64,000 nucleotides of DNA. It comes from an uncultured delta proteobacterium. GTDB lineage: Bacteria > Desulfobacterota > SM23-61. Position 1 is the stretch's first letter; every line of letters begins with the position of its first letter. Where the stretch lies: NCBI GenBank assembly GCA_963712535.1, contig CAVQIK010000017.1, positions 2,451 to 66,450 of the forward strand, in the 5' to 3' direction. The notes under the pieces are model-generated. The model saw only the letters and a program-made list of their open reading frames with translations, did not search any database and was not told the origin of the DNA. Shown here piece after piece: positions 4,769 to 56,855 of this stretch. The position numbers were made by a program, and so were the translations under genes.

Positions 4769-5250
4769 GGATCATCTCCCATTTAGTTGAGGAAAACAGG
4801 GCGGTATAGTTAAATTGTTCTGTGATTCCAGGGGCCCGAAAGAAAAGCCAGATTGCGCCACAATCATGAGGCACGTATCCCTACTTGGTTCTGGCGGGGG
4901 TGTTCCTCTATCCTCTGAACCCATGCTTTTCATGCCCCCGCTGGGCTTTGCGGAAGACCATTCATTCCTTTGATTGAAGCTCTATCCCGCCAATGCTTGT
5001 GGCCCAATCTGGCTTTTCTTCCGGGCCCTTGTGAGGCTTTCAGTGAATATTCGATCAACTATAGTGAACGTCATAAATAATTTGTCATCGCCAACTCAAC
5101 TCCAATGACCTGTGGGCTGCAGAAATCCCCCCGCGCCCCCCTTTATTAAAGGGGGGTTGGAAGGATTTCGGGAGATGACTGGCTTGATCCCCGTGGTTCT
5201 CTGTTAACGTCGACTTACTTCTGTCGTCTCCTATAAATGGGAGATGATCT
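4769..5250 (+). mobile_element. 310-bp MITE family A, copy 1 (interrupted by a nested family B MITE)
   Basis: TIR GGATCATCTCCCATTT / AAATGGGAGATGATCT; flanks TCTTTTAA / TCTTTTTA (7/8 TSD); homologous to 14377, 47721 and 56546. Confidence 0.85.
5062..5233 (+). mobile_element. 172-bp TA-targeting MITE family B (IS630-like) with internal REP hairpin
   Basis: TA duplicated at 5060-61 and 5234-35; removing it restores the family A end CAACTAAAT; near-identical reverse copy at 23488-23659. Confidence 0.85.
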
Positions 5251-5406
5251 TCTTTTTATAAGCGGAGAGCGATCGAATTGTCAAATGGCGGGACTCCCTT
5301 TGTTCGAGCCGGCGCAAACGGAGACGGGAAGAACGGCAGAGCACGACCGGGCCGGGTTTTCTTTCCGGAGGTGAACGGCGCGGCCGGCTTTGGGCGACCT
5401 CGTGGA

Positions 5407-6280
5407 CTACAGTCCTCTCAGGAATTCAGGGCGCAAGAGGGATGGGTCTTTCGCGGAAGCGACTTTCCGGATTAAAGCGACCACGGCGTCCTTATCCCTG
5501 GGCAATCGCGCCTTGATGGGCAGGTAGTTGGAAGCGTGATTGGAAGTAAAGTAGCAGCGGCTGAAATTGGAATGGCCGACGATCGTGCCGAGTTCTTCCA
5601 GGAGTTGAAAAGGGGAGGGGAGTCTGAAACTCTCCCGCTTTCATCTCATCATCGAGGGGCGTCCCCGGAACGACCATCAGGGTGAGGGCGCTGGCAAAAT
5701 CAGGATCGATGTCGGAGAGGACTCGGGCCGTGGCCCGCGCGTGCCGCTGCCCGCCTTCCACCCCGCCGAGCCCCAGGAGAACCGTTGCCGAAAGAGTGAT
5801 TCCGGCTTCCTTCACCCGTCTCCCCGCCTCGACCATCTGCTCGTAAGACGCCCCTTTCCGTATTTTCTCCAGCAGGGCCGGGTCCCCGGTCTCCACCCCC
5901 AGGTAGACGATCCCCAGCTTTCGTTCCTTCAAGGCTTTCAATTCCTCGACGCTCTTGCGCAGGATGCTCTTGGCGTTCCCGTAAACGCCCACCCGCCGTA
6001 AGCCGGTAAGTTTCTCGTTTAGATGGTCCAGGATGGCCACCAGCTTCGGCTGGGGGATGATCAGGGCGTCTCCATCAGCCAGGAAAACCTTCCGGAAAGG
6101 GCCGTACGGGGCCGCCTCATCGATCTCCTGTTTGATAAGCTCGAGGTCCTTGATGCGAAAGCGGCGGCCTTTGTAAGTGGGGCAGAACGTGCAACGGTTG
6201 TGCGAGCACCCCAGGGTGACCTGGAGGATCAGGCTTTCCGCCTCGCTGGGCGGCCGAATGACGATTCCTTCGTATTGCAT
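5407..6280 (-). CDS. Radical SAM protein (frameshift ~5612)
   Basis: CSHNRCTFC motif, FLADGDAL, YLGVETG. The shifted frame continues FTSNHASNYLPIKARLP...RPEFLRGL* to 5407. Confidence 0.85.
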
Positions 6281-6479
6281 TTTTGAAATCCGTGAGAAGC
6301 GAGTAGTGATTTTGAGGGGTCAACTTTCAAAATCTTAACTTTCTTTCAGGAAATTGGCAATGACGAGAGAAAGGATTCAGGCGTCGGGGCGAAGGTTTCC
6401 ATCTTTTCTTGTCCGGATTCCCGGCTGCTGATTTCGGGCTTTTACCCCTTGCGCTCTCGCGCCCTCGCGCCTCGCGGTT

Positions 6480-7385
6480 TTAGTTGAGTCTTCCTTCCTT
6501 CTTCAGCCGTCCCAGGATCTCGTTTATTTTGGGAAGGGCTTCGACAGCCGCTTTCTCTCCTTCCAGGATCGCCTCGTGTCTCTTGGAAAAATCGCTGGAA
6601 GCGATGTGGCCCACCCTGGGCCTCAGGAGGACGTCCGCCCTGGAGCACTGGAGGCTGACCAGCTGGGAGTACATGATGCTCACCGCCTGAAGGATGGTCT
6701 CCACGGTATTCTCCGGTTTCGGGCTCTCCAGGTCCGAGGAGATGTCGACCGCGATCACGACGTCCGCGCCGAATCTTCTTGCGGCATCCACCGGTACCGG
6801 GCTGACAACCCCCCCGTCCACATAGAAGCGGTCCCCGATTCTTACCGGCCGGAAGATTCCCGGGGTGGAGCAGCTCGCCCTCACCGCGGCTCCCGTGTTC
6901 CCTTTTCCAAAGACGACCTCCTGCCCGCTTTGAATGTCCGCGGCGACCGCGTAAAAGGGGATGTTCAACTTCTCGAGAGGAGTGTTCCTGACCGTCCTGT
7001 TCACATAGTCGGCGAGCCTGATCCCTTGAACAAAGCCGTTGTCCGGAATGATGTAATCGACAATGTCCCCTTTATCCACCGAAAGCGCCAGGCTCTGGAG
7101 CTGAAAAGCGTCGAGACCGTAAGCATAGAAACTGCCGACCAGGCTGCCGGCGCTCGTCCCCACGATCATGTGAATGGGGACTCTGTGAGACTCCAGGACT
7201 TTCAATACCCCGATATGGGCGAACCCCTTGGCTGCCCCTGCGCCCAGGACCAGTGCGATTCTGGCCGGCTTGGGTGGAGGAGGGGAAGGGAAAACCGGCG
7301 GGGGCTGAACCTCCCGGTGAGCGCAGGAGGCGAGGAGGAGAAGGGCGGATAAAGATAATAACTTTAGATTCTTGAACACGGTCAT
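6480..7385 (-). CDS. Patatin-like phospholipase (NTE family), lipoprotein
   Basis: GAGAAKG, GTSAG, DGG motifs; LLLASC lipobox. Confidence 0.92.
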   Translation of the reverse strand: MTVFKNLKLLSLSALLLLASCAHREVQPPPVFPSPPPPKPARIALVLGAGAAKGFAHIGVLKVLESHRVPIHMIVGTSAGSLVGSFYAYGLDAFQLQSLALSVDKGDIVDYIIPDNGFVQGIRLADYVNRTVRNTPLEKLNIPFYAVAADIQSGQEVVFGKGNTGAAVRASCSTPGIFRPVRIGDRFYVDGGVVSPVPVDAARRFGADVVIAVDISSDLESPKPENTVETILQAVSIMYSQLVSLQCSRADVLLRPRVGHIASSDFSKRHEAILEGEKAAVEALPKINEILGRLKKEGRLN

Positions 7386-7417
7386 CTCCTTTCCCGGGGA
7401 ATCCCCGGTTCATCCCC

Positions 7418-7445
7418 ATTCTAACGGGAGGGAGGCATTTGTCAA
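7418..7445 (-). promoter_or_regulatory. Putative sigma70 promoter for the patatin gene
   Basis: TTGACA-16 nt-TAGAAT on the minus strand, just upstream of ATG 7385. Confidence 0.55.
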
Positions 7446-7577
7446 TCCTGGTGTGAATTCCCGGGCTCGTCTCCAATCGAGAGACGAAAATCCCAGTTCC
7501 GGCTCCAGGCATCGGCCCCGCACCGCCGGCGGAGGAAAGCCTTTCAACTGGAAGAGCAGGTATGGAATACCCCTCAA

Positions 7578-7593
7578 TGGCATTAAAATTGCA
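7578..7593 (+). promoter_or_regulatory. Putative sigma54 (-24/-12) promoter
   Basis: TGGCATTAAAATTGCA has GG-N10-GC spacing, ~50 bp upstream of ATG 7645. Confidence 0.6.
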
Positions 7594-7644
7594 CAAGTAA
7601 GCCTGATTCCTAAACCCCAGGAAAAAGGAGACCGCAAGCGAGAG

Positions 7645-8892
7645 ATGAAAAAGGGGCTTCTTCAGGTCGCTCTTTTCTCCCTGGCGGGGCTGCTGATCGG
7701 GGCATGCGCGCCGGCCCTGAAAGAGACCCGTCCCGGAGAAATTGCCGACCCCTATTTTCGGCCGAAGAGGGTTTATGCCCTGGATTTCAATCAGGCCTGG
7801 GATTTGACTCTGAAGGCGCTCAGCCGTGAGGGTATTTCTCTCCGGGCGAGCAACAGAGAGACCGGCCTCATCCAGACGGATTACACGAACGTTTCCGCTC
7901 AGGAAAGGAACAGGTGCGCCCTCCGGTGCACCCGGGAGCCTTACCGAAAAACATTCGTTCACATCCTTTGCCGGCGTGAAGCCAGGACGGAAATGAACGA
8001 GCCGTTCAGGGACATCACTTACACCTATCCCCTGGAGGCGATGAAGGCGGAAGAGAATCTTTACCGGAAAATCGAGCCTTACCTCCTTCCCGCGGAGAGG
8101 TCCCCCCGGGTCCAGCAGGAGATGATCGCGAAAGGGGAACTCTCCCCGGCCGCGGTTCCGGTCGTCCCGGCGGCTTTGTTCGGCAAGGAAAACCCCGGGG
8201 CTGTTCCTCTTCTCCGAACCAGCGCAGCCGCCCAAACATCGCTGACCAGCCCTGCCGCTGTTAACCCCCATGCCTCTCCGGTTCACTCGAACGGAGCAGC
8301 GCCGGAACCCGCGCCAGTCCCTCTCGTGAAAGCCGCGAGCGAGGAAAAACCCCGGATCGCCTATGTGAGCACGATCGAAGCCGCGAACGCGAGAAAGGCG
8401 CCGTCCACCCAGGGTCCCCTCCTGACCGTGTTGAAAAAAGGAGAAAGGGCCGAGCGGGTGGGGGTGTCCGGAATTTGGACCAAGGTTAGACTGCTTTCCG
8501 GCGAGGTTGTCTGGATCCACGGCGACTTCTTAAAAGAGGTGGACTCCGGGGAAGCGTCCTCCGGCATCTTCTCCGCGGAAGCCGCGAGGAATAACGGATC
8601 TCCCCGGCCGGTAAAGGAAAATCCCGCGGCGGCGCGGGACAAAGTTCCTCCCGTTTCGCCGGTAAAAACGGAATCCCCTGCCGGGGGAACGGCCGAGTCT
8701 TCAAAGATGAACCTGGAAACCAGGGCCATTACCAGGATGAGAGCCGAGCCGTCTTCGAATTCCAAAGTGGTCCTGGTTTTAAAAAAAGGGAGAGCGGTAG
8801 AAAAAATTGGCGAGTCCGGGGAATATTCGAAGGTAAAGCTGTCCTGGGGAGATACGGGCTGGGTCCTGAACCGGTCGCTCAAAAGCCGCTGA
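7645..8892 (+). CDS. Lipoprotein with BamC-like N-terminal region and two bacterial SH3 domains
   Basis: LLIGAC lipobox; AWDLTLKAL...ETGLIQTD; two SH3b-like repeats (ANARKAPS..LKKGE..WTKV..WI and RMRAEPS..LKKG..YSKV..GWV). Confidence 0.75.
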   Translation: MKKGLLQVALFSLAGLLIGACAPALKETRPGEIADPYFRPKRVYALDFNQAWDLTLKALSREGISLRASNRETGLIQTDYTNVSAQERNRCALRCTREPYRKTFVHILCRREARTEMNEPFRDITYTYPLEAMKAEENLYRKIEPYLLPAERSPRVQQEMIAKGELSPAAVPVVPAALFGKENPGAVPLLRTSAAAQTSLTSPAAVNPHASPVHSNGAAPEPAPVPLVKAASEEKPRIAYVSTIEAANARKAPSTQGPLLTVLKKGERAERVGVSGIWTKVRLLSGEVVWIHGDFLKEVDSGEASSGIFSAEAARNNGSPRPVKENPAAARDKVPPVSPVKTESPAGGTAESSKMNLETRAITRMRAEPSSNSKVVLVLKKGRAVEKIGESGEYSKVKLSWGDTGWVLNRSLKSR

Positions 8893-9018
8893 GCAAATCC
8901 TGCCGGGAGCAAGAGAGAGAACAAGGCAATTTTTGCCCGGGTGGTTCAACGAAGGGCGGCCAGGAGTCCTGACAAATTCGCCGCAGCGTGATTTCCTCCA
9001 AGTGACGTTCACGTTTTT

Positions 9019-9732
9019 TCAGTAATAAGATTTACCGGCTCCGGGCCAGCCCCTTTGGCTGTTTCCCGACCTCTCCAGAGCTCTTCGAGCCAGCTCGCCG
9101 ATGGTCACGGACCTGAACTTCTGATCTTCGTAGATCCTGATCGCGGACTCCTCTTCCAACAGGGCTTCGATTCCGGCCAGATTTCCTTCAATCCTCACCC
9201 GGGCGCCAGCCCACAGGGCGTGGCCTTTGACCATCGGGTCGGGCGAATCCAGGTATGCTTCCAGATACCGGCCGGCGCGGAGAGATGCCGGCAGGGCGGG
9301 GTGGGCCCCCGCCAGGCGCCCCACGCCCCACAGCGCTCCCCGCTGAAGAGGTCCGAACTGCAGGAAATTTTCCCCGGGCTGAACATAGGAAATCAGTATG
9401 GCGGCATATTCCCGGGCTAAAGCGGGTTGGCGGGCCAGGATTTCCCCCATGGCTTCGGGACTTCCCCAGCCGATTCCGCCCGACTCGTCATTCAGGGACC
9501 AGATCAGGCGCCGCAGGATGTTTCTGGCGGGCTCGAGATCTGTCTGGGCGAGGCGGGCGGTGACCATTCCTACTGCCGTTACGGCATGCCATTTGAGTAC
9601 TTCGTCCATGCTGCACAAGGCGGAAAGGAGGCGGCTCAGGGTTCTGGAGGTGGGGAACTCGTTCCAGGCCTCCAGTTGGGCTTCAAAGTCCGGCGATTTT
9701 AAAATCGCGTAGAGTTTTTCTTTCAGGATCAT
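9019..9732 (-). CDS. HEAT/PBS-lyase repeat protein (DVU0298-like)
   Basis: RRLIWSLNDESGGIGWGSPEAMGEI signature. Confidence 0.75.
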   Translation of the reverse strand: MILKEKLYAILKSPDFEAQLEAWNEFPTSRTLSRLLSALCSMDEVLKWHAVTAVGMVTARLAQTDLEPARNILRRLIWSLNDESGGIGWGSPEAMGEILARQPALAREYAAILISYVQPGENFLQFGPLQRGALWGVGRLAGAHPALPASLRAGRYLEAYLDSPDPMVKGHALWAGARVRIEGNLAGIEALLEEESAIRIYEDQKFRSVTIGELARRALERSGNSQRGWPGAGKSYY

Positions 9733-9785
9733 CGTCCATGTGGTTCAAGGTCGAAAGACCAGCGCAGGGAATTGTGCTTTGATTA

Positions 9786-9938
9786 TAGTGAACGGCTTAA
9801 GTAAGTCGACATCCAGTTGCCTCTTATTGACTTATGTCTCGCCGTAAAATCCCCCCTGCCCCCCTTTGATAAAGGGGGGTTTGGGGGGATTTACCAGGGA
9901 TTGCCCATGCAATGTCCACTTTCTTTGGTCGGGCACTA
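9786..9938 (+). mobile_element. MITE family B variant (153 bp) with internal REP hairpin
   Basis: TA|TAGTGAACGGC...GGGCACTA|TA; internal AATCCCCCCTGCCCCCCTTTGATAAAGGGGGG. Confidence 0.75.
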
Positions 9939-9940
9939 TA

Positions 9941-9968
9941 GTAGGGGCGATTCATGAATCGCCCCTAC
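9941..9968. repeat. GTAG-type REP
   Basis: GTAGGGGCGATTCATGAATCGCCCCTAC, a perfect palindrome. Confidence 0.85.
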
Positions 9969-10028
9969 GATCTATCCGCGCTCAATTTCGGGCGGGGTGC
10001 CCTTCTTTCATTCCTCAAGGAACAGGGA

Positions 10029-10772
10029 TCAGACGACCCGGTTCCGCAGCACGCCGATCCCGGCGATGTCTATTTCCACCTCGTCTCCCCGGTGGATATC
10101 CCCGATGTCCGGGGTCCCGGTCATGATGATGTCGCCCGGAAACAGGGTCATGATCTCCGAAATAAAGCTGACGAGTTCGGCGCAGCTGTAGTACTTCGCC
10201 TGAGTGGACCCGCTGACCCGGACCTCGTTGTTCACCCGGCAGGTAATGACGGTATTATCCGGGTCGAGGTCGGTTTCAATCACGGGACCGATCGGGCAGA
10301 AGGTGTCATAACTTTTTCCGTGAAAGGTGCCGTTGTCGCGGAGGACGAAATCGTAAGCGGTCACGTCGTTCCCGCAGGTGTAACCGAGAATGTACCGGGA
10401 AGCCTCTGCCGGCTTGATGTTTCGGGCGGGTTTCCCCATCACCACGACCAGCTCCGACTCAAAGATCAGGCGCTCGGACTCGGGAGGATAAACGATGTTC
10501 TCGCCGTGGGCGATGACCGAGCTCGGGGGCTTGAAAAATAAAAGGGGCCGGGGAGACCGGGAAGGGTTTTCTCCCCACGGGTAATTTTTCCCCGCGCAGA
10601 TAATCTTCGTGGGTTCGCAGGGGGGGAGGGGTTTAAACTTTTCGAGAAGCCCCAGAGCCGGCCCGCGCTCCGGCCGCCCTTCCAGGGCCGAGCCTTCGAG
10701 CCGGTACAACGTCTCCCCTTCGGCAACGCCGTACTGCTTCCTTCCGTCTTTCTCGAACCGGAGTAGTTTCAT
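10029..10772 (-). CDS. Fumarylacetoacetate hydrolase family protein
   Basis: KIICAGKNY, FFKP, ESEL, GYTCGNDVTA, GKSYDTF, DIIMTGTP. Confidence 0.92.
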   Translation of the reverse strand: MKLLRFEKDGRKQYGVAEGETLYRLEGSALEGRPERGPALGLLEKFKPLPPCEPTKIICAGKNYPWGENPSRSPRPLLFFKPPSSVIAHGENIVYPPESERLIFESELVVVMGKPARNIKPAEASRYILGYTCGNDVTAYDFVLRDNGTFHGKSYDTFCPIGPVIETDLDPDNTVITCRVNNEVRVSGSTQAKYYSCAELVSFISEIMTLFPGDIIMTGTPDIGDIHRGDEVEIDIAGIGVLRNRVV

Positions 10773-10897
10773 GATCTCTCCCCCTCGATCCTTAGTGGGC
10801 ATTTCCATAAATATCGTATCGTATTTTTTCGCTTAAAAGGGTTCACAGTACGGCAGAGTCAGAGACAAGCAAATGGAGTTCCTTGATACGTCCCTTC

Positions 10898-10948
10898 CAG
10901 AAATCCCCCCCGCCCCCCTTTATCAAAGGGGGGAAGGGGGGATTTCTG
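10898..10948. repeat. CAGAAATCCCC...CCCCTTT/AAAGGGG...GGATTTCTG REP hairpin
   Basis: Same family as the hairpins in MITE B and next to the DUF559 gene. Confidence 0.75.
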
Positions 10949-11142
10949 AGGCTTGTTCTCATGGCCAGGGTTTCCTTTTTCCAAACTCAAGAGCCTGCAA
11001 CATAGTACAGAAGCAGGCCGCTGCGTAACCTGAATACGTTAGTGAATTTATGAACTACTGTACTTAGGATAGCCACCGCCGAATCGTACCATTCGGCAAA
11101 GGACGGGGCAACCCGTAATTTTGCGATCAAGGCCCCTTCTCC

Positions 11143-11215
11143 AATCGGCATCGGAATCGGGATCGGGATCGGGATCGGGTTCCATTTTCGATTCCGAACC
11201 CGACCCCGATTCCGA
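11143..11215. repeat. (ATCGGG)n ... (CCCGAT)n imperfect palindrome
   Basis: Tandem hexamers forming an inverted repeat. Confidence 0.7.
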
Positions 11216-11261
11216 AAGAGTGTGGAAGTGGACATGCGAGACTCCCGATCAAGCCGGCCGA

Positions 11262-11307
11262 CGTCTGAGGTCTGTGGTCTGAGGTCTGATGTCCGTCCTC
11301 CGGTCTA
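11262..11307 (+). repeat. Heptamer tandem repeat (GTCTGAG-like)
   Basis: gtctgag gtctgtg gtctgag gtctgat gtccgtc. Confidence 0.65.
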
Positions 11308-11317
11308 ATGTCTATCC

Positions 11318-11346
11318 TTGATTTACCCGTCCACCTCTTATATCAT
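11318..11346 (+). promoter_or_regulatory. Putative sigma70 promoter
   Basis: TTGATT-17 nt-TATCAT ahead of a GGGGAGG RBS and GTG 11378. Confidence 0.5.
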
Positions 11347-11377
11347 TTCTTAGAAGTCTTTTCGGGGAGGGATAACG

Positions 11378-12247
11378 GTGGAAGCCAAAGATTTGCTGGA
11401 AGAGTATCTCGTTTCCGGCCACGGGGCCTGCCCGGGGTGCGCCATGCCGGTGGTCATGCGCCACGCCTTTCACGCGTTGGGCCCGAGGACCGTCTCCGTC
11501 GTCACCGCCAGCTGTTACGGGACGATTATCAGCACGTACCCTTTCTCCCCCGTTAAAATTTGCACCTACACGACTCCCTTCGCGTCGGCCGCTTCCGCTG
11601 CTTCCGGCATAAAGGCCGCCCTGGACCATCACGGGGATTTCCAAACCACTGTTCTCGCCGTCGCCGGGGACGGCGGGACTTTCGACATCGGCATCCAGGC
11701 CCTTTCGGCGGCCGCCGAGCGCAACGACGATTTTATCTTCCTCTGCTATGACAACGAAGCGTACATGAACACGGGGATCCAGCGCTCCTCGGCTACTCCC
11801 TGGGGGGCCTGGACCACCACGACCCCGCCCCTGAACCTCAAGAGCCAGCCCAAGAAAGATATCGTGGAGATCATGGCCGCCCACCGGGTGCCGTACGCGG
11901 CCACAGTCTCCATCGCGTACCCGGAAGATTTTGCCCGAAAGATCCGGAAGGCTAAGGAGACCCGGGGCCTCAAGTTCATCTATGCCCTTTCCCCCTGCCC
12001 GGTAGGCTGGCGGTTCTCTTCGGAGCTGACCATCCGGGTTGCCCGCCTGGCCGTTCAGTCCAAGGTCTTTCCCCTCTACGAAGTGGAGGACGGGGAGCGG
12101 TACCAGCTCACTTTGGAACCTGAGGGGGTCCCGGTGGGCCGGTACTTCGAGCCCCAGGGCCGGTTCTCCTTCTTGCGGGAAGGCGACCTGGAGAGAATCC
12201 AGGAGAACGTGGACCGTGAATGGGGGAGGTTGATGAGGCGGATGTAA
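11378..12247 (+). CDS. 2-oxoacid:ferredoxin oxidoreductase beta subunit (PorB/VorB type)
   Basis: GHGACPGC, AGDGGTFDIG, DNEAYMNTGIQRS, SPCP. Confidence 0.92.
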   Translation: MEAKDLLEEYLVSGHGACPGCAMPVVMRHAFHALGPRTVSVVTASCYGTIISTYPFSPVKICTYTTPFASAASAASGIKAALDHHGDFQTTVLAVAGDGGTFDIGIQALSAAAERNDDFIFLCYDNEAYMNTGIQRSSATPWGAWTTTTPPLNLKSQPKKDIVEIMAAHRVPYAATVSIAYPEDFARKIRKAKETRGLKFIYALSPCPVGWRFSSELTIRVARLAVQSKVFPLYEVEDGERYQLTLEPEGVPVGRYFEPQGRFSFLREGDLERIQENVDREWGRLMRRM

Positions 12248-12306
12248 CCTTTTGCAGAACCGTTCCAACCGGCGCCATGCCTTCCGCGGCCCATCCGGAG
12301 GTGCCC

Positions 12307-13296
12307 ATGAAAAGATTTTCCCTCTCACTCCTTCTGGCCATCTTCCTCTCCTTTCCTGCTCCCGCGAGCGCCGAGCAGGACCTGAAAGAAATATTCAAGG
12401 CCATCGTCAAGGTACATGCCAAGGTTCCGGAACACGCCCGCTCTGCCGGTACCCTGGGAACAGAACGGGAAGGCAGCGGAGTGATCATCGACTCCAAGGG
12501 GCACATCCTGACCATCGGTTATCTCATTACCGAGGCCGAGACGATCGAGGTAACCGGGCCCGAAGGAAAGGCCGTCAGCGCGACCTCCGTGGCTTATGAC
12601 TCAAGGACGGGATTCGGCCTCATACGCGCCGAGAAACCCATTGGCGCCGCTCCCATGGAAATCGGCCGATCATCCGATGTGGAAGAAGGGGACCGGGTGC
12701 TTGCGGCGAGCTATGGCGGGAGAGACTCCGTCCAGGGGGCCCAGGTCATCTCTCGGAAAGAATTTGCCGGCTACTGGGAGTACCTTCTCGAAAGCGCCAT
12801 ATTCACCGCCCCTCCCCACCCGAATTTCGGGGGGGCCGTCCTGATCGACCGGGGAGGGAAGCTGGTGGGGATCGGCTCTCTTTTCACTACGGTCGCCATC
12901 TCCGGGCTGGGATCGATTCCGGGGAACCTGTTTGTCCCCATCGACCTCCTCAAGCCCATCCTGGCAGACCTGATCGCGAAAGGCCGCTCTTCCGAGCCGC
13001 TTCGCCCGTGGCTCGGCGTCTACTCAGAGGAGACCCACGGCCGGGTCATCGTCACCCGGGTCACCCCGGAGGGTCCGGCTGAAAGAGCGGGCCTGAAGAG
13101 CGGCGACGTGATCCTTATGGTGAAACAGAAAGAGGTGAGCGGGCTGGCTGATTTTTACCGTAAAATGTGGGCGCTGGGAAATGCGGGGGTCGAAGTCCCC
13201 CTCACCATCCTCCAGGGGGTCCGGGTCCGCGACCTGGCCGTGAAGTCCGCCGACCGGTACGAGTACATGCCGCTCAAGCCGCGGAAAAAGATATAG
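12307..13296 (+). CDS. Exported S1C (HtrA-like) trypsin-fold protein with PDZ domain; catalytic His/Ser appear substituted
   Basis: Signal peptide; GSGVIID, LTIGYL, HPNFGGA, PWLGV...GPAERAGLKSGDVIL. Confidence 0.85.
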   Translation: MKRFSLSLLLAIFLSFPAPASAEQDLKEIFKAIVKVHAKVPEHARSAGTLGTEREGSGVIIDSKGHILTIGYLITEAETIEVTGPEGKAVSATSVAYDSRTGFGLIRAEKPIGAAPMEIGRSSDVEEGDRVLAASYGGRDSVQGAQVISRKEFAGYWEYLLESAIFTAPPHPNFGGAVLIDRGGKLVGIGSLFTTVAISGLGSIPGNLFVPIDLLKPILADLIAKGRSSEPLRPWLGVYSEETHGRVIVTRVTPEGPAERAGLKSGDVILMVKQKEVSGLADFYRKMWALGNAGVEVPLTILQGVRVRDLAVKSADRYEYMPLKPRKKI

Positions 13297-13334
13297 TTCG
13301 TTCCCATCCGGAAAACAAATTTCCCCTGGAGCTC

Positions 13335-14318
13335 TTATTCGGCCTTCTTTACCCCCATCTTCTTCAAGAAATCCCCGAACATCGTGTAGTCTGCCGGAAT
13401 TTTCTTCTCCAGTTCAGCCTGGTCTTTGTAATCATAAGGAATATCGAAGCTGGCTAGGACCTTTTGGAAGGAAGCCTCTCCGGTTACTTTCCTGATGACC
13501 TCCCCCAACTTCTTGGAAATGTCCGGCGGAAGCCCTTTCGGTGCCACCAAGAGAAGCCCAGCGGGGGGGACGTCCGGGCAGCCGAAATCCTTGGGAATCG
13601 GAGTGTCGGGATACAGGGGGTTCCGCTTTTCCCCTGCGGTCACGAGCATGAGCAGCCGGAACATGCCCTGCTTGACGTATATGATCTGGCTGGAACCGAT
13701 CGAGAAGTCGCAATGCTTGCCCAGGAGGATGTTGCTGGCCTCCGACGCGCCCTTGGTCGGGATGTGTCTAAAGCTGAGTCCTTTGCATTCGATGAACCGC
13801 TCCAGGGCCAGGTGCTGGCGGGTGTACATGCCCGTCGAGCTGTAGGAGAGCCCCGGATTGGCCTTGGCGCGAGCAATAAGCTCCTCCATGTTCTTGATGG
13901 GCGAGTCCTTGTGCACCACGACGACGCCGAGGTAATGGGCGTAGTAGGACAGGTAGGTGAAATCCTTCATGGGATCATAGGCCAGCTTCTGGAGATGAGG
14001 ATTGACGGTCAGGGCTCCCTCGCTGATCGAGCCCAGGGAGTACCCGTCGGGTTTCTTGCTGGCCACGAGGCCCGCGCAGACCGTCGTTGAACCGCCGGGC
14101 TTGTTTTCCACGACCACGGGCACGCCCAGCAATTTTTCCATGCCGCTGCCGATCGCCCTCGCGCTGACATCGGTGCTGGCCCCGGCCGCGTAGCCGCAGT
14201 AGATGGTGATCGGCTTGTCCGGCCAGCCCTGGCCGAAAGCCGGGGAGCAGAACAAAGCGAAAAGAAGGAAAGGGAGGGCGGCCAAACACGACAGCTTGGG
14301 ATGAATTATGGTCATCAT
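13335..14318 (-). CDS. Tripartite tricarboxylate transporter substrate-binding protein (Bug/TctC)
   Basis: WPDKPIT, AGASTD, VENKPGG, PDGY, YDPMKDF. Confidence 0.92.
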   Translation of the reverse strand: MMTIIHPKLSCLAALPFLLFALFCSPAFGQGWPDKPITIYCGYAAGASTDVSARAIGSGMEKLLGVPVVVENKPGGSTTVCAGLVASKKPDGYSLGSISEGALTVNPHLQKLAYDPMKDFTYLSYYAHYLGVVVVHKDSPIKNMEELIARAKANPGLSYSSTGMYTRQHLALERFIECKGLSFRHIPTKGASEASNILLGKHCDFSIGSSQIIYVKQGMFRLLMLVTAGEKRNPLYPDTPIPKDFGCPDVPPAGLLLVAPKGLPPDISKKLGEVIRKVTGEASFQKVLASFDIPYDYKDQAELEKKIPADYTMFGDFLKKMGVKKAE

Positions 14319-14376
14319 AAAAAACCTCCTTCAGGATTTCTTGATCGGCGCCTACCGAATTGTAATTTCATTTGGT

Positions 14377-14686
14377 GGATCATCTCCAATTTGGTTGAAG
14401 GAAAATACGGCGGGACTGGTAAATTGTGCTGGGATTCCAGGGGTTCGGAAGGGAAGACCCATTCCGCCACAATCCTGAGGCACCTATCTGTTCTTGGTTC
14501 TGGCGGGGGTGTTCTTCTGTCCTTTGAAGCAGGCCCGTTCAGGCCCCCGCTGTGCATTGCGGAGAGCCATTAGGTCCTTGTAACCCAAGCTTTATCCCGC
14601 CAAAGCTTGTGGCGGAATGGGTCTTCCCTTCCGAACCCTTGTTAGGTTTTCAAGAAGAATTCGATCAACTAAATTGGAGATGATCC
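14377..14686 (+). mobile_element. 310-bp MITE family A, copy 2
   Basis: Perfect 16-bp TIR GGATCATCTCCAATTT; perfect 32-bp internal inverted repeat 14441-14472 / 14607-14638; no TSD recognisable. Confidence 0.85.
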
Positions 14687-14736
14687 ATAAATTTTAACAT
14701 TTCCGCGAATTTTTCGTGCTCCCACTTGTGTTGTGG

Positions 14737-14952
14737 CCCGGGGGCAAGGGCGGTGCGTGCAGAAAGCCTTGGCGGGTGAAATCCTGAAGATGACTTGTTC
14801 GGGCTTCCGCAGAAAGAGGCGGAGCGACCGGGCACACCCCGAAGCGGTCCTGCATAGCTTAAGACGGGGAGCTTGCGCAGGCAGAAGTTTCGCCCCATCC
14901 AGGAAATGAAAGATGCCTCAGGATTTCTGCGCGCACCGCCCTTGCCCCCGGG
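14737..14952 (-). repeat. Long stem-loop element sharing the internal core motifs of MITE A
   Basis: 29-bp inverted repeat (one mismatch) 14737-14765 / 14924-14952; on the minus strand it encloses AATCCTGAGGCA...TGCGGAAG...CCCGCCAAGGCTT. Confidence 0.7.
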
Positions 14953-15100
14953 TCCTCGCAAGGGCTGGCCACTATCAGGCGGCGAGAATTCAATCCGCCT
15001 TGAGCGGTTCAAGGTTTTCAAGCCCCCACATCTGGTGGAGGGCATGACTTCACCAGGCTTCCAACGCAGAACAGGTTCAATGCGGCCGGGCTATTCCGGC

Positions 15101-16285
15101 TCACAGGACTTTTTGTTTTTTCAACTCCTCAATTTGCTCCCGGGAGTAGCCCAGGAGACCGGACAGGATTTCCCCGGTGTGCTGTCCCAGGGTAGGGGCC
15201 CCTTCGAAGACCTCTTCCTTCACTTTGGACATTTTGATCGGGTTTCCCACCATCTTGATCTCTTCCCCCAGGTGGTTCACCGGAACCACCATGTTGCGGG
15301 CTAACACGGACGGGTCCGACAGGGCCTCGGCGAGGTTGTTCACCGGCCCTGCCGGGACGTCGGCCTTGATGAGCAGATCCAGCCACTCCTCCCGGTCTTT
15401 TTCCAGAAATTTTCGTTCCAGGATGGGCATCAAGGCCTCCCGGTTTTTCAACCTCCCGTTCCGGGTGCTGAAACGAGGGTCTTTTCCCACTTCGGCAATT
15501 CCCAACGCCTGGCAAACTCCCTGGAAGAATTTCTCCTGGGCGGCGTCGATGGTCAGGTATTTTCCGTCCTTCGTCCGAAAGGCCCGGATCGGCACGGAAG
15601 ACACGTGACCCGATCCGATGGGTTCCGGGATGACTTTCTCCAGAAAGTAATACTGCGCCCGGTAGGTCATCAGCGAAATCTGGGCATCCAGCATGGCGAT
15701 GTCCAGTCGCTGCCCCTCCCCGGTCTTCTCCCGGTCGTAGAGCGCCGCAAGAACGGCCATGGCGGCGAACATTCCCCCGCCCAGGTCTCCCATGGGATAG
15801 CCGAGGCGAACGGGCGGTCTCCCGGGTTCCCCCGTAAAGCTCATGACGCCGCCCATCGCCTGGATGAGGAGGTCCAAAGCGGGACGGTCCTTGTATGGGC
15901 TGTTGGAACCAAACCCGGTGACGGAGCAGCAGATGATCTTCGGGTTCACCTTCTTCAGGGTTTCGTAATCGATCTTCAGCTTCTCCGCGGTTCCCGAACG
16001 GAAATTTTCGTACACCACGTCCGAGATTTTCACCAGCCCGTAAAAAGTTTCCCTGGCCTTCTCGTTCCGGAGGTTCAGGGTCATGCTCTTCTTGTTCCGG
16101 TTGAAACTCAGATAGTAGGCGCTTTCCCCCTTGTGGGTGTAGTGGACGGTCGTCCGGCTCAGGTCTCCCCCCTCAGGGTTTTCGATCTTGATCACCTCCG
16201 CCCCGAGATCAGCCAGGAGCAGGGTTCCGTATGGCCCCGCCATAATTTGCGACAAATCCAGGATCCGAACTCCGCGAAGAATCAT
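15101..16285 (-). CDS. CoA-transferase family III (CaiB/BaiF)
   Basis: RILDLSQIMAGP, LGAEVIKIE, NRNKKS, ENFR, catalytic MGDLGG. Confidence 0.93.
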   Translation of the reverse strand: MILRGVRILDLSQIMAGPYGTLLLADLGAEVIKIENPEGGDLSRTTVHYTHKGESAYYLSFNRNKKSMTLNLRNEKARETFYGLVKISDVVYENFRSGTAEKLKIDYETLKKVNPKIICCSVTGFGSNSPYKDRPALDLLIQAMGGVMSFTGEPGRPPVRLGYPMGDLGGGMFAAMAVLAALYDREKTGEGQRLDIAMLDAQISLMTYRAQYYFLEKVIPEPIGSGHVSSVPIRAFRTKDGKYLTIDAAQEKFFQGVCQALGIAEVGKDPRFSTRNGRLKNREALMPILERKFLEKDREEWLDLLIKADVPAGPVNNLAEALSDPSVLARNMVVPVNHLGEEIKMVGNPIKMSKVKEEVFEGAPTLGQHTGEILSGLLGYSREQIEELKKQKVL

Positions 16286-16345
16286 GTCACTCCTCCTAGG
16301 AATTCTCTAGGATTTATTCTTTGAGGAACTTTGTAATTTTCTTTC

Positions 16346-16446
16346 GGACGCAGATGAACGCAGATAGGCGCAGATTTGCAGGATTCAAAAACCTTTATTC
16401 CACGTTCTTAAGATAATCTGCGCAAATCTGCGGAAATCTGCGTCCC
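16346..16446. repeat. CGCAGAT / ATCTGCG tandem-inverted REP-like element
   Basis: 3x CGCAGAT followed by 3x ATCTGCG; related element at 54471-54642. Confidence 0.75.
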
Positions 16447-16453
16447 AATAAAA

Positions 16454-16852
16454 TTAGGCCTTTTTCTTCTGCTCTTCTTCCTCGATCTTCATGAGCGCCC
16501 GAATGCCGGTGTCGAACGCGGGCCCGCCTCCGGGAATGATCATGGTCTCGCAGGCCTCCATGAGCTCCTGCTTCGTCGCGCCGTGCTCAAGGGCCCTTTT
16601 CATGTGGAGGTAAACCCCGGTCTCCCGCCCTCGATACGCGAGGATCGCGATGGCCACGAGTTCCCGCGTCTTCACCGGAAGGGCTTTTCCGGGCCCCAGC
16701 CCGTTGTTGTAGAGATTGTTGTAGGCCTCCATGAAATCGGGGTCCCTCTCCGCAACATAAAACTTCGGGGGAGACCCGTACCCACGGTCCTTCTGCATCT
16801 TCTCTATGAGATCTTTTGCCCTCTTTCCTTTCTTTTCATCCGCCATTTTCAT
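16454..16852 (-). CDS. Carboxymuconolactone decarboxylase (CMD/AhpD-like) family protein
   Basis: LPVKTRELVAIA...HMKRALEHGATKQEL...GGP. Confidence 0.85.
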   Translation of the reverse strand: MKMADEKKGKRAKDLIEKMQKDRGYGSPPKFYVAERDPDFMEAYNNLYNNGLGPGKALPVKTRELVAIAILAYRGRETGVYLHMKRALEHGATKQELMEACETMIIPGGGPAFDTGIRALMKIEEEEQKKKA

Positions 16853-16981
16853 CGTCCTTTCTAAATTCAGGATCCTCTTCGCAAGTTGAGCAACTTCCTT
16901 TGGTTCTGTAGCCAGCGGCAGGCAGGCCTGCCCTTTTTCCAGGGTTACCCCGGCCCAACTTCCTTTCCCGCCCTTTTCCGG

Positions 16982-18133
16982 TCAGCGCTTCAGGATAATC
17001 ACCGTGGACGCCCCGGTGTCGTGGCCGATGAAACCCCCGGAGCAATGGCCCAGGCCGACTTTCGCCCCCTGTACCTGCCGGGCGCCCGCCTCGCCGCGGA
17101 GCTGCCAGACGATCTCGCACACCTGGGCTACCCCCGTCGCGCCGACGGGGTGGCCTTTGCATAGAAGGCCGCCGCTCGGATTGATCGGGAGCTTCCCGCC
17201 GATCTGGGTTTCCCCGGAAGCGACCCAGCGCCCGCCTTCTCCCGGGGGGCAGAGGCAAAGGTTCTCGATGCGGACGATTTCCGCGATGGTGAAGCAGTCA
17301 TGGACCTCCGCGAGGCTCAGGTCCTCCGGGCCGATGCCTGCTTTCTCAAAGGCTTCCTTGGCGGCCCGGGTTTCGAGTTCGTTGACGGCGATGTCCCGCA
17401 GGTTGTCGTAGGTTCCGGACTTGAGGGTGGCGGCTCCCACGTACACAAACTTCGTGGTGTACTTCCTGGCTACTTCCTCGCTGCAGAGGATGGCCGCGGC
17501 TCCTCCGTCCGTCGTGGGGCAGCAATCAAAAAGGGTCAGGGGATAAGAGATCATCGCCGACTTTCTCACCTCTTCGACGGTTACTTCCTTGGGGAGAAAT
17601 GCCCGGGGGTTCAGCTTCGCGTTTTTGCGGTTCTTCACCGCCACCATCGCAAGCTGCTCGAGGGTCGTGCCGTACTGGGCCATATGCCTTTGCGCGCGCA
17701 TCGCCCACACACCGGGAGGCGCGAACCCCGCGATCCCTTCGATGTTGTCGCCGGTGCGCCCGAGGGGAGCGCCTGTGCCGCCCGTTAATTTCTCCACCCC
17801 CAGGGCCATGGCGATGTCGTAGAAACCCGAAGCGACGGCCATATAGGCCTCCCGGAACGCCGTGGAGCCGCTGGCGCAGGCATTCTCCACCCGGGTGATC
17901 GGGATGCTCCGGATACCGACTCCCCTCAGGATCTCCTGACCCACGCAACTGATATGCCCGGTCTCTCTCCGTTCCGTCAGGTTCCCCACATAAGCCACCT
18001 GGATGTCCTTGGGACCCATCCCGGCATCCTTCATCGCGTCCCACGCGGCTTGCCTTCCCAAAACCTCGATGGGGGTCTCGGGAAATTTCCCGAATTTGGT
18101 CATCCCCACTCCGATCACCACAACATTCCTCAT
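16982..18133 (-). CDS. SCP2-type thiolase family protein
   Basis: ENACASG, CCPTTDG, EVHDCF, NPSGGL, GHPVGATG. Confidence 0.93.
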   Translation of the reverse strand: MRNVVVIGVGMTKFGKFPETPIEVLGRQAAWDAMKDAGMGPKDIQVAYVGNLTERRETGHISCVGQEILRGVGIRSIPITRVENACASGSTAFREAYMAVASGFYDIAMALGVEKLTGGTGAPLGRTGDNIEGIAGFAPPGVWAMRAQRHMAQYGTTLEQLAMVAVKNRKNAKLNPRAFLPKEVTVEEVRKSAMISYPLTLFDCCPTTDGGAAAILCSEEVARKYTTKFVYVGAATLKSGTYDNLRDIAVNELETRAAKEAFEKAGIGPEDLSLAEVHDCFTIAEIVRIENLCLCPPGEGGRWVASGETQIGGKLPINPSGGLLCKGHPVGATGVAQVCEIVWQLRGEAGARQVQGAKVGLGHCSGGFIGHDTGASTVIILKR

Positions 18134-18233
18134 GAGATTTCCTCCTCTGCTCTGCGCGCCGGCAGGGCTGAAAATTCGCTCGTCCCTTTCCTCAGCGTTT
18201 TATCCGTGTTCGTCCGCATCCGATCCATTTCGT

Positions 18234-18680: not shown

Positions 18681-18778
18681 GCGTTTCGCGTAGCAAGGTC
18701 ATATCGTTTTCTCGTATCAGTTTAATGGGTGAGAAGATATCCCTGAAACTGGAGCCGGGAGAGCACAAGCGGCAGAAC

Positions 18779-18804
18779 GTAGGGGCGGATCACCTCGCCC
18801 CTAC
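18779..18804. repeat. GTAG-type REP
   Basis: GTAGGGGCG...CGCCCCTAC. Confidence 0.75.
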
Positions 18805-18836
18805 AACCCTTGCGCGTTACCCGTTGCATCCTTCAT

Positions 18837-19625: not shown

Positions 19626-19762
19626 CAGCGTTCTCCTTTCGCCGGGTGTTATAAAACCGGCAGTCAGTTTCTCGGGTGTACACTTTTTTGGGGGGAGAGG
19701 GGGAGGCCTATTCCGTCGTCGAAGCAGAAAGGAACAGCCAGATGAATAAACACCTCAGGGCC

Positions 19763-23659: not shown

Positions 23660-23673
23660 TAACGATCCGCTCG

Positions 23674-45398: not shown

Positions 45399-45900
45399 GG
45401 GCATAAGCGCTAACTTAGGATTTTTTTCTTCAATTCCCCCCTTTGCAAAGGGGGGCCAGGGGGGATTTCTGCTGATAGGTTCTCTTTAAGGGTACGGTAG
45501 ATAACCTCCGCCACCGCCTCCCTTTCCTTCAGAACTTCTCTGCTGGTAAATCGCAAGACTTTGAACCCAAGAGAGGCCAAATAGTCATCGCGATTTTTAT
45601 CTTTCTTGGCTTGTTTTTCTTCCACGTGCTGTGATCCATCAACTTCTATGACCCACTTTGCCCGTGGCGCGAAGAAATCCACGATATATTCGCCAATGGG
45701 TTTCTGACGATAAAATTGGACACCAAGGACCTGTTTACTCCGCAATCCTGACCAAAGAGCTCTTTCGCTCTCTGTCAAATTACTTCGCAATTGGCGGGAT
45801 CTGGCTTTGAGATTTGCCCAGTACTTCAACACGGCTCGGCTCCCACTGAAAATCCCCCCTCCCCCTTTTTCAAAGGGGGGTTAAGTTAGCGCCTATGCCC
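45399..45900. mobile_element. 502-bp non-autonomous element carrying DUF559
   Basis: 19-bp TIR GGGCATAAGCGCTAACTTA / TAAGTTAGCGCCTATGCCC (18/19); 5-bp TSD GTCGA at 45394-98 and 45901-05. Confidence 0.85.
45410..45832 (-). CDS. DUF559 (Vsr-like PD-(D/E)xK) endonuclease domain protein
   Basis: LRSNLTESERALW..LR..Q..G.QFYRQKPIGEYIVDF..VIEVDGSQH..D..RD..L..GFKVLRF. Confidence 0.9.
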   Translation of the reverse strand: MLKYWANLKARSRQLRSNLTESERALWSGLRSKQVLGVQFYRQKPIGEYIVDFFAPRAKWVIEVDGSQHVEEKQAKKDKNRDDYLASLGFKVLRFTSREVLKEREAVAEVIYRTLKENLSAEIPPGPPLQRGELKKKILS

Positions 45901-47693: not shown

Positions 47694-47720
47694 TCATTCT
47701 CCTTCTATCCTTCAATTTTA

Positions 47721-48026
47721 GGATCATCGCCAATTTGCGTGAAGAAAAATAGGGTGGCAAAGGTAACTTGTGCTGCTTCCAGGGGCCCGGAAGGAAAGGC
47801 AGATTCCGCCACAATCCTGAGGCACGTATTCCTTCTTGGTTCTGGCGGGGATGTTCTTCTATCCTCCGAATCAACCCTTTCCTGTCCCCGCAGCGCCTTT
47901 CGGAAAGTTCGCCAGCCCTTTGACCGAAGCTTTATCCCGCCAAGGCTTGCGGCGGAATCTGCCTTTCCTTCCGGACCCTTGTGAGGCTTTAAGCAAATAT
48001 TCGATCACGTAAATCGGAGATGATCC
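47721..48026 (+). mobile_element. MITE family A, copy 3
   Basis: TIRs; perfect 8-bp TSD CAATTTTA; internal 32-bp stem with 2 mismatches. Confidence 0.88.
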
Positions 48027-48073
48027 CAATTTTATTAAAGGCAGTTAAACACCGGTAAGCCCGGCAATCCGGA

Positions 48074-50575: not shown

Positions 50576-50659
50576 CAGAAATCCCCCTTAATCCCCCTTT
50601 TTCAAAGGGAGAAACCATAACTCCTCCCTTTGGAAAAGGGAGGTTGGGAGGGATTTCTG
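50576..50659. repeat. Double REP hairpin (REPIN-like)
   Basis: Same architecture as 36900 and 39123. Confidence 0.75.
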
Positions 50660-50687
50660 GATCGCGTTTCAAACATCGAAGTCTTTC

Positions 50688-55461: not shown

Positions 55462-55522
55462 AGCGGGAATGCCTTTCCGGAGAAGCCCCTCATGGGCACG
55501 GGTCGGTCCAAGGGTGCTGGCA

Positions 55523-55726
55523 TCAAAAGGACTTTGACCAGAGGACTTGGAGCGCGCTCCCCGCCGTGCCGTCCCGAAGGAAACCTGTGTCCCAGGCGTA
55601 TTCGATATAAATTTGAGAGTTCCAGAAGAAACCGGTGGTCAGGCCGATGGATGCGGCCTGGCCCGTCTTGCTCACGAACCCGATCTGGTTTGACGCAACT
55701 ATGGTTTCGCGGTCGGCCCATCTCAT
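55523..55726 (-). pseudogene. Probable C-terminal fragment of an outer-membrane beta-barrel protein
   Basis: Amphipathic strands QIYIEYAWD...LQVLWSKSF with terminal Phe; too short for a complete barrel. Confidence 0.4.
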
Positions 55727-56487
55727 GGCACATGCCCGAAACCGAGCAGCTTGTCAATCCGGCTGAACACATAGGAAAACCCGTGAACACTGGATGTTTT
55801 GTTCCCTTCGATGGTGTACAGCCAGCCATCTTTTACTTGATGGACCAAACCCACATGTCCCAGCCACCCCTCCAACTTTTCCCGCCACCAGACCACAATA
55901 TCTCCTGGCTTTGGCTCGTATCCGCTGTTCGGCGGGTATGCAAAACCTTTCTCTTTGAACTCCTGCAAAAGCGCCCTGGCCCCCGGGCAATAGGCAAAGG
56001 GCATGCTGCCTTGATCTCCCCCACTTGCCTGGAGGTAACACCAGCTTACGAAAGAGGCGCACCATGAATTCCCCTCCGGAAGTCCAACGGGAGCCAGATA
56101 TTTTTTCACCCAGGGACCGCAGTTGTCTCCTCCTATCTCGCAGGCTCCGGCATTGAGCTCGCGGATTGCGGTTTTCAACGCAGCCCGTCCCAAGATGCTG
56201 CCCCCTAGTTCGGGAGCAGGCATCTTTCCGAAATCGATTGGGCCTGGTGAGACAATCACCGGTTTTGGATGGGAGAGGCTCCACCAGGTGAGCGGCCCCA
56301 CCTTTCCGTCCACGACCAGCGGCTGTGCATGATCGTCGAGGTTCTGGGCCTGGAAAGCACGCACTGCCCGGTATGTCTGCAGTTCGAACTTGCCATCGAT
56401 ATCTACCGGATAGCCCCGCTTCACCAAAAGCTTCTGGACTTCGCGCACATCCGATCCTCTATCACCCCGTTTCAGAGTTCCCTGCAT
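55723..56487 (-). CDS. Peptidoglycan-binding domain + CHAP amidase
   Basis: LKRGDRGSDVREVQ..DGKF..AVRAFQ..DGKVGPLTW; WCASFVSW, PKPGDIV, GHVGLV, TIEGN. Confidence 0.9.
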   Translation of the reverse strand: MQGTLKRGDRGSDVREVQKLLVKRGYPVDIDGKFELQTYRAVRAFQAQNLDDHAQPLVVDGKVGPLTWWSLSHPKPVIVSPGPIDFGKMPAPELGGSILGRAALKTAIRELNAGACEIGGDNCGPWVKKYLAPVGLPEGNSWCASFVSWCYLQASGGDQGSMPFAYCPGARALLQEFKEKGFAYPPNSGYEPKPGDIVVWWREKLEGWLGHVGLVHQVKDGWLYTIEGNKTSSVHGFSYVFSRIDKLLGFGHVP

Positions 56488-56545
56488 GATACCTTCCCTC
56501 CTGTAAAGAAAAATCCGGCGAGTTTGACTGGCGATTATTTTTTCT

Positions 56546-56855
56546 GGATCATCTCCAATTTAGTTGATCGAATTCTTCTTGAAAACCTAACAAGGGTTCG
56601 GAAGGAAAGGCAAATTCCGACACAAGCATTGGCGGGATAAAGCTTCGGTACCAAGGACCGAATGGCTCTCCGCGATGCGCAGCGGGGGCCTGAACGGGCC
56701 TGCTTCGAAGGACAGAAGAACATCCCCGCCAGAACCATGAACGGATAGGTGCGTCATGATTGTGGCGGAATTTGCCTTTCCTTCCGGACCCCTGGAACCC
56801 CAGCACAATTTACCAGTCCCGCCGTATTTTCCTTCAACTAAATTGGAGAGGATCC
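56546..56855 (-). mobile_element. MITE family A, copy 4 (reverse orientation)
   Basis: TIRs; flanks TTTTTTCT / TTTTTTCC (7/8); closest to copy 2. Confidence 0.87.

Follow-up and report, generated by a model that had tools for sequence, protein, structure and literature searches.

Why does a short transposon keep its interior folded while the sequence of that interior changes? This question is raised by a 64-kb stretch of DNA from an uncultured delta proteobacterium (hereafter the window), in which four related elements of ~310 bp lie at all the places given by an earlier note made from the sequence alone. The repeats are a non-autonomous transposon, a MITE (short for miniature inverted-repeat transposable element), and their ~200-nt core stays paired through matched changes in the two arms of a stem. 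The reading that we prefer, at a probability of roughly 0.45, is that of an ISL3-type MITE whose folded module is required in cis, as a single strand, for propagation, where templated copying would supply the matched changes and selection among lineages would keep them.

The element in the window

All four copies (starting at 4769, 14377, 47721 and 56546) were present on reading the sequence, and so were the four pairs of stem arms quoted in the earlier note, exactly as written there. The inverted ends start with GG as described, but their length is ~22 bp (GGATCATCTCCAATTTAGTTGA and its inverted copy) and not 16 bp. The 8-bp AT-rich target duplications, one perfect and two matching at 7/8 positions, were recovered as reported. 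The junction that had been called invariant is nearly so, except that copy 4 has ATGACGC where the other copies have ATGAGGC. The copies are laid out as follows.

4769..5249, + strand: copy 1, older 'D' subtype; left end 4769-4790; folded core 4828-5031
~5062-5235: nested TA-type repeat that interrupts the right end of copy 1, the remainder of this end lying at ~5236-5249
4761-4768 / 5251-5258: target duplication of copy 1, 7/8, read across the nested insertion, TCTTTTAA / TCTTTTTA
14377..14686, + strand: copy 2, young 'A' subtype; ends 14377-14398 and 14665-14686; folded core 14437-14641
47721..48026, + strand: copy 3, 'C' subtype; folded core 47779-47981
47713-47720 and 48027-48034: target duplication of copy 3, perfect over 8 bp, CAATTTTA
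56546..56855, - strand: copy 4, young 'B' subtype in reverse orientation; folded core 56591-56795
56538-56545 / 56856-56863: target duplication of copy 4, 7/8

Copy 2 shares 96-98% identity with 12 other copies and has no 8-bp target duplication when its flanks (CATTTGGT and ATAAATTT) are compared. Contigs from four DNA sequencing runs were compared over 4000-20000 in search of an empty site, and no precise one was found among them; a contig of a ~95%-identical relative (run X2) lacked 14340-15048, a gap which exceeds the element since it comprises copy 2 and ~360 further bases. This gap, together with the missing target duplication, suggests a rearrangement at the site of copy 2.

Genome-wide copies and affiliation of the ends

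A profile built from the four window copies was searched against the genome of the window (G000; 5.95 Mb in 22 contigs, G+C content 56.9%, 75.55% complete by markers), and matches with nhmmer scores >200 were taken as near-full copies. There were 61 of these, 302-342 bp long, besides about ten fragments, and every one of the 61 was intergenic on a crude map of open reading frames (ORFs). Both ends could be located in 47 of the 61, where the 8-bp duplication was perfect in 28, carried one mismatch in 10 and 2-7 mismatches in 9; the A+T content of the flanks was 84%. The 22-bp end pattern, allowing up to 2 mismatches, gave 46 forward and 46 reverse matches in G000 and none for the reversed control pattern. 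The pattern seen in the window is far above chance. Multiple copies, inverted ends, duplications of fixed length and the lack of a transposase gene bear out the identification as a MITE. In most copies an ORF stays open for 55-70 codons from a conserved ATG; coding was rejected because, past column ~135, three different frames occur, so that the conserved bases beyond are not read in the same one.

Two shortened derivatives were noted in G000, a 114-bp form consisting of the left end and an inverted copy of the left arm (C6:51949-52062) and a 201-bp form whose centre is precisely deleted between AATC repeats, with a 7/8 duplication kept (C11:62232-62432). A second palindromic repeat, flanked by TA and carrying CCCCCC...GGGGGG hairpins, occurs in the window as an inverted pair of 96% identity (5060-5242 and 23479-23661), the first member being the one that interrupts the right end of copy 1. 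The nesting junction, TCAACTA followed by TAGTG..., recurs in 5 of the 61 genome copies, and this site in the element end seems to be a hot spot for the TA-type repeat.

A counterpart of the ends was found in a sister genome, where a 413-codon ORF at locus L154 matched PF01610 (ISL3) with 221.5 bits and was flanked by inverted ends, GGTTCTTCTCCATTTTAGTGGG on one side and GGTTCATCTCCAATTTAGTGGG on the other. The latter, its right end, is identical to the element end at 19 of 22 positions, and no similarity between the interiors of the two was detected by nhmmer at E up to 10. ISL3 elements make 8-bp AT-rich duplications. From this end match and these duplications, the element is, as judged by its sequence, an ISL3-type MITE, in agreement with one of the transposase types that the earlier note had named. 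PF01610 was present in 4 of 16 other family genomes and gave 0 matches in the G000 assembly (75.55% complete). The autonomous insertion sequence with matching ends that had been proposed as a check was not found in G000 either, where no pair of ends lay 0.6-3.3 kb apart and no transposase stood beside solo ends.

Other candidate partners were considered and set aside. For IS1, PF03400 appeared as short fragments only, in 2 of 17 genomes; for IS1595, PF12762 appeared once in G000, with no end-like sequence alongside. BLAST matches in other genomes that seemed to hold the right arm alone were full copies with diverged centres and not insertion sequences. A 507-bp MITE of another genome (G006:C100, locus L172, 263-769) has ISL3-type ends as in the element and a perfect 8-bp duplication TAAAATTT. 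Its GC-rich interior is unrelated to the core and gives no match to the covariance model of the core (R1, described below), which marks core and ends as separable modules.

A folded core kept by paired changes

On the strand favoured by wobble pairs (see below), the core is placed in copy 2, taken as the example, as follows.

14437..14641, - strand: core of ~200 nt

It is modelled as a long bulged stem P1 (28 modelled pairs) that closes a junction containing a GC-rich hairpin P2 (GCGGGGG/CCCCCGC) and the conserved unpaired motifs AUCGGCGGGA, UUCCGCAAAG and UGCCUCAU. GCGGGA/UUCCGC is a further candidate helix. Pairing was measured in an alignment of 102 cores (A1) by a counter over 35 pairs, with 500 shuffles and controls in which the partner was slid. 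Paired cells amounted to 97.2% (shuffles 90.8%, slid controls 40.2-53.7%), pairs changed on both sides to 21 of 35 (shuffles 12.2+-1.8, slid controls 6-12), cells changed on both sides to 189 (shuffles 32, slid controls 13-57) and the covariation score to 0.213 (shuffles 0.090, slid controls 0.036-0.074); on every measure the observed value was reached by 0 of 500 shuffles. Kinship alone can exceed shuffles, a caveat which the slid controls and counts on a tree answer in part. The tree counts used parsimony states on a maximum-likelihood tree of 133 distinct copies, 58 from G000 and 75 from other family genomes, with ten controls in which the partner was slid by 1-5 columns. Same-branch double changes in the stem numbered 32 against 2-12 in the slid controls, and pair-to-pair compensatory double changes 23 against 0-3. 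The claim that the stem stays paired through compensatory changes is thereby upheld, well above the slid controls in both kinds of count.

Plain mutual information was dropped in favour of the tree-based counts since it was dominated by the split between G000 and the other genomes. When all column pairs were scanned on the tree, the background was high (225 pairs with 2-4 events) and no single pair stood out; only the summed stem did so against the slid controls.

Diverged types and their ends

The covariance model R1, built from A1, and direct alignments brought further types of the element to light. A 340-bp type in another family genome (G008) has the ends of the main type and 8-bp duplications. 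An abundant type of the same genome, with >100 copies, has the ends GTATCAGTTTAGAG..., also with 8-bp duplications, and two types of the genus g7 have still other ends, CTGACCGTC... (duplication about 9 bp) and GAGACTGTGTC.... For the outer helix, the main type has CGGAAGGAAAGG/CCUUUCCUUCCG, the 340-bp type CGGGCAAAAAGG/CCUUUUUGCCCG, the type g7a CGGGAGGAGAG/CUCUCCCUCCCG and the abundant G008 type GGGGGCC/GGCCCCC, and the inner helix runs across types from GCAA/UUGC through UUAA/UUAA to GGAA/UUCC. In the outer as in the inner part of the long stem, both strands differ at many positions between types with complementarity kept, and one pair of P2 is G-C, A-U, U-A or A-U according to lineage. The motifs AUCGGC.GGGA, UUUCCGC, GCGG.., CCGCC and UGCCUCAU are common to all types. 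The core is hence found in five diverged types with at least four kinds of element ends, and the structure that the earlier note took to be under selection is indeed constrained, the second helix included.

At the DNA level, full-length relatives were found in 13 of 16 other family genomes, and a search of 24 genomes from other families returned one weak match. R1 gave 11 to 141 matches in each of the 10 family genomes tested (10/10); at E up to 0.001, with stricter filters for large sets, the 146 genomes searched from 74 further families of the phylum gave none. Public records with the element are titled Deltaproteobacteria, uncultured Syntrophaceae or Thermodesulfobacteriota metagenome-assembled genomes (MAGs). 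Matches of a 22-nt pattern in MAGs titled Pseudomonadales, Jatrophihabitantaceae, Chthoniobacteraceae and Endomicrobiales were taken as chance because the first three had no profile match and the last only a 15-bit fragment. A MAG titled Acidobacteriota has two true copies on a single contig, which may reflect either transfer or mis-binning.

The ~200-nt core may be a folded module that stands by itself, as an RNA or as a recognition structure of single-stranded DNA; it would be specific to one uncultured Thermodesulfobacteriota-like family, would have persisted there in tens to >100 copies per genome on at least four unrelated kinds of ends and would have its junction motifs read by a family-specific partner. 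We regard this extension as doubtful, though still one to be reckoned with.

Level and strand of the constraint

Private mutations were counted in two young subfamilies of G000, with 10 and 11 distinct copies. The 51 such mutations fell at 0.160 per column where columns are >=90% conserved in other genera, at 0.169 where they are 70-90% conserved and at 0.178 where they are <70% conserved (p=0.84). Since private mutations are spread evenly over conserved and variable columns, resident copies decay as if neutral, and the conservation then comes from which lineages keep multiplying. Constraint thus seems to act on the multiplying lineages. Older copies in G000 carry one or two arm mismatches.

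Departures from a standard pair were unequal between the strands. On the strand read in the earlier note (hereafter the reader's strand), 72 changes led to A.C (G.U when viewed from the opposite strand) and 17 to G.T, as compared with 76 and 59 for the same changes in the terminal repeats taken as control. Counted by pair, 21 leaned one way and 5 the other (p=0.0025), P2 leaned in the same direction as the P1 stem, and no general excess of G-to-A changes was seen elsewhere in the element. Wobble tolerance favours the strand opposite to the reader's.

These observations bear on the proposal that the arms are mirror-image binding sites on duplex DNA for a dimeric protein, either transposase or host factor, which co-evolve with no single-stranded fold. 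The near invariance of the outer helix sequence CGGAAGGAAAG in the main type and the threefold occurrence of each of the motifs CGGAAGG and GGCGGG in the element would suit such sites. The helix sequences, however, differ across types with their pairing kept, a duplex site offers no reason for a strand-biased G.U pattern, and unrelated ends flank the core, which probably means different transposases. We consider this explanation very improbable.

Copying between the arms

Some of the matched changes bear the mark of copying. Three copies from two genomes (L040, L043 and L054) carry a hairpin insertion of 15 nt in their right arm, and at the mirrored site of its left arm L043 has the exact reverse complement of this insertion. 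At least five G000 copies of one subfamily share a 1-nt deletion in both arms, and one has it in the right arm alone. On a single branch between G000 subtypes, three base changes within four positions are mirrored, and the inner left arm of G000 resembles an inverted copy of the right arm at a place where other genera retain two mismatches and a bulge. These cases show that arm-to-arm templated copying occurs in the element. Template switching in quasi-palindromes is described as a source of multi-base 'compensatory' changes that mimic compensatory evolution (PMC8794818). Given the mirrored insertion and deletion, part of the 'compensation' is a one-step event at the DNA level and by itself no proof of RNA.

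The stems could accordingly be no more than a by-product of DNA mechanics, that is, of template switching or hairpin-templated repair in a quasi-palindrome, with no selection on the fold and a functionless interior. A mirrored insertion and deletion can arise only by copying, the clusters of three or four base changes mirrored on one branch in the G000 subtypes point the same way, and the terminal repeats are mirrored too (11 compensatory events against 0-5 in slid controls); the mechanism itself is known to produce such a likeness (PMC8794818). Copying would, however, erase the mismatches and the bulge conserved in mid-stem, and the mismatches that persist in resident copies indicate that correction is not continuous. 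The explanation also leaves unaccounted for the unpaired motifs kept invariant across five diverged types and the strand-biased tolerance of wobble pairs. Gene conversion within the element, which the earlier note had named among the findings that would undo its claim, does take place but does not cover the invariant junction motifs, the conserved mismatches and the strand bias. We judge it unlikely that DNA mechanics is the whole explanation.

Six copies in G000 were observed with a 27-nt hairpin-forming insertion directly after CCCGCCAA, at the following positions, and this insertion point is a second site that tolerates extra stem-loops.

C12:8102-8450, copy with the 27-nt insertion
C22:33480-33831, copy with the 27-nt insertion
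C1:241087-241440, copy with the 27-nt insertion
C4:163975-164325, copy with the 27-nt insertion
C11:77694-78009, copy with the 27-nt insertion
C5:563952-564267, copy with the 27-nt insertion

Gene context

The minus-strand start codons at 4711, 14318, 47693 and 56487 do lie near the elements, 28-59 bp from their ends according to a crude ORF caller, and the earlier note had suggested from this that the repeat may act as a mobile 5'-leader. Across the genome, the distance to a facing start codon had a median of 120 bp and ranged from -22 to 1512, and that to a facing gene end had a median of 91 bp. Gene starts made up 70 of 122 flanking boundaries, where about half are expected, so that the positional enrichment near starts that was to be checked is absent genome-wide. 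In tandem gene contexts of G000, the reader's strand ran with the genes in 25 cases and against them in 11 (p=0.029), and at 14 usable loci of other genomes the counts were 8 to 2 in the same direction. This weak bias opposes the wobble-favoured strand, which is antisense to its neighbours in most tandem contexts. Scans of the core and its surroundings for promoters of sigma-70 type and for intrinsic terminators found none that is conserved. With scattered distances, no enrichment of starts, no fixed orientation and no conserved promoter or terminator, the 5'-leader reading finds no support genome-wide.

A broader form of this idea holds that the core is a structured non-coding RNA cargo, a small RNA or a cis-regulatory leader, which serves the host or neighbouring genes and for which the ends are only a vehicle. 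Much of the structural evidence is what such a cargo would show, since covarying helices beside sequence-invariant junction motifs are the usual signature of functional RNA, to which are added the strand-specific tolerance of G.U, the variable hairpins inserted at fixed sites, the association of one core with at least four kinds of ends, its presence in each of the 10 family genomes tested and, in 3 of the 4 window copies, a wobble-favoured strand directed into the adjacent gene. There is also a precedent in bcr1, which is transcribed and shows compensatory changes (PMC3184786). A cargo of use to the host is nevertheless at odds with conserved columns that are not depleted of private mutations in young copies, with the scatter of start-codon distances, with the lack of a conserved sigma-70-type promoter or intrinsic terminator and with the antisense position of the wobble-favoured strand in 25/36 tandem contexts of G000 and 8/10 of the other genomes. 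Nor does the element match an Rfam family: Rfam 15 run over the whole window at gathering thresholds returned only a group II intron domain elsewhere, and for two copies searched at E up to 10 it returned sub-threshold chance rows only. An RNA cargo appears to us improbable, if slightly less so than stems formed by DNA mechanics alone.

A proposed role of the fold in propagation

Under the reading preferred here, the element, a non-autonomous MITE that has ISL3-type ends and makes 8-bp AT-rich target duplications, carries a ~200-nt module that folds as a single strand into the bulged stem, the junction, the GC-rich hairpin and the invariant unpaired motifs. The fold would be needed in cis for a lineage of the element to keep multiplying. 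The folded strand may be a single-stranded DNA intermediate or a putative transcript of the element itself, recognised through the conserved junction motifs. Many of the 'compensatory' changes would come in a single step from template switching between the arms during replication, and the paired versions would be retained by selection among the lineages that multiply. Individual inserted copies would play no role for the neighbouring gene.

Several points weigh against this reading. No partner transposase was found in the G000 assembly (75.6% complete by markers) despite the presence of young copies, and the test of neutral decay holds only 51 mutations. In most genera two mismatches and a bulge are conserved in mid-stem, which means that pairing is not maximised everywhere. 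The wobble asymmetry derives from few independent polymorphisms, with ~13 pairs of A.C type in >=3 copies as against 2 of G.T type; rare variants, seen in one or two copies, are unbiased (21 vs 19), and errors in the tree can inflate the event counts. The strands are not told apart by folding energy (z -4.30 vs -4.09, one copy). Transposition of the ISL3 type, with its DDE chemistry, is not known to have a strand-specific single-stranded step, so a strand-biased constraint is hard to place.

Other features of the window

Short GC-hairpin repeats, CCCCCCTTTATTAAAGGGGGG and then GGGGGGATTTCT, are found at as many as 9 places of the window, and at least some of them belong to the TA-type repeat.

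5116-5175, short GC-hairpin repeat
9839-9898, short GC-hairpin repeat
10893-10952, short GC-hairpin repeat
22811-22870, short GC-hairpin repeat
23545-23604, short GC-hairpin repeat
36909-36978, short GC-hairpin repeat
39118-39237, short GC-hairpin repeat
45436-45475, short GC-hairpin repeat
50593-50660, short GC-hairpin repeat

In one 904-nt contig of DNA run X1 (depth 18.5, 2 mismatches), position 4782, which is just inside copy 1, is followed directly by 9783, so that 5000 bases are skipped; the join could be a structural variant or a repeat-driven join of the assembly. The group II intron hit is to the catalytic domain RF00029 at 63256-63330 (+ strand), with 46.5 bits at a gathering score of 40. 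Two pairs of direct repeats of ~75% identity, 15108-15407 / 23681-23980 and 15999-16282 / 24572-24855, are both spaced by 8573 bp and are probably a duplicated gene block.

Relation to known systems and significance

Insertion sequences of the ISL3 family share with the element the GG-starting ends, the 8-bp AT-rich duplications and, at L154, the 19/22 end match, but the interior is unrelated to that of L154 and the same interior also stands between other kinds of ends. As for MITE derivatives of this family, one paper lists ISL3 elements and MITEs separately. The REPINs, moved by RAYT enzymes, resemble the element as family-persistent populations of short, hairpin-forming mobile DNA with compensatory changes in the hairpin (PMC3116915). 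They are, however, doublets of ~35-nt REP sequences mobilized by a single-strand HUH enzyme (RAYT tyrosine transposases), whereas the element described here has the hallmarks of the DDE type, namely inverted ends that match an ISL3 element and 8-bp duplications. The bcr1 repeat of the Bacillus cereus group (group A bcr repeats), which with the REPINs is the closest published case, is a small, multi-copy, non-autonomous mobile repeat of ~155 bp, flanked by 5-bp direct repeats and transcribed, whose predicted structure is kept by compensatory changes (PMC3184786). The present element differs from it by its length of ~310 bp, its 22-bp inverted ends, its 8-bp duplications and its three-part core. 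Template-switch mutation accounts for one-step multi-base changes, insertions and deletions that keep or restore pairing (PMC8794818), but it is a mutational mechanism rather than a function and does not account for the junction motifs and the strand bias.

New are a core in three parts whose junction motifs are invariant, the finding of this core with at least four kinds of ends, its confinement to one family of bacteria and the separation of constraint on lineages from constraint on copies. Few MITEs with folds kept by compensatory change are known (bcr1, REPINs), and the role of such folds is not agreed. The data separate two pairs of effects that are usually confounded, selection on lineages from that on resident copies and true compensation from one-step copying between arms, and they warn that covariation inside palindromic mobile DNA alone is not proof of an RNA gene. 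Whether folds of this kind work in transposition or as RNA is a question that the element makes concrete and testable. Should the core prove to be a self-standing module of this family, it would represent a new class of structured element with a logic comparable to that of REPIN/RAYT or of integron attC sites.

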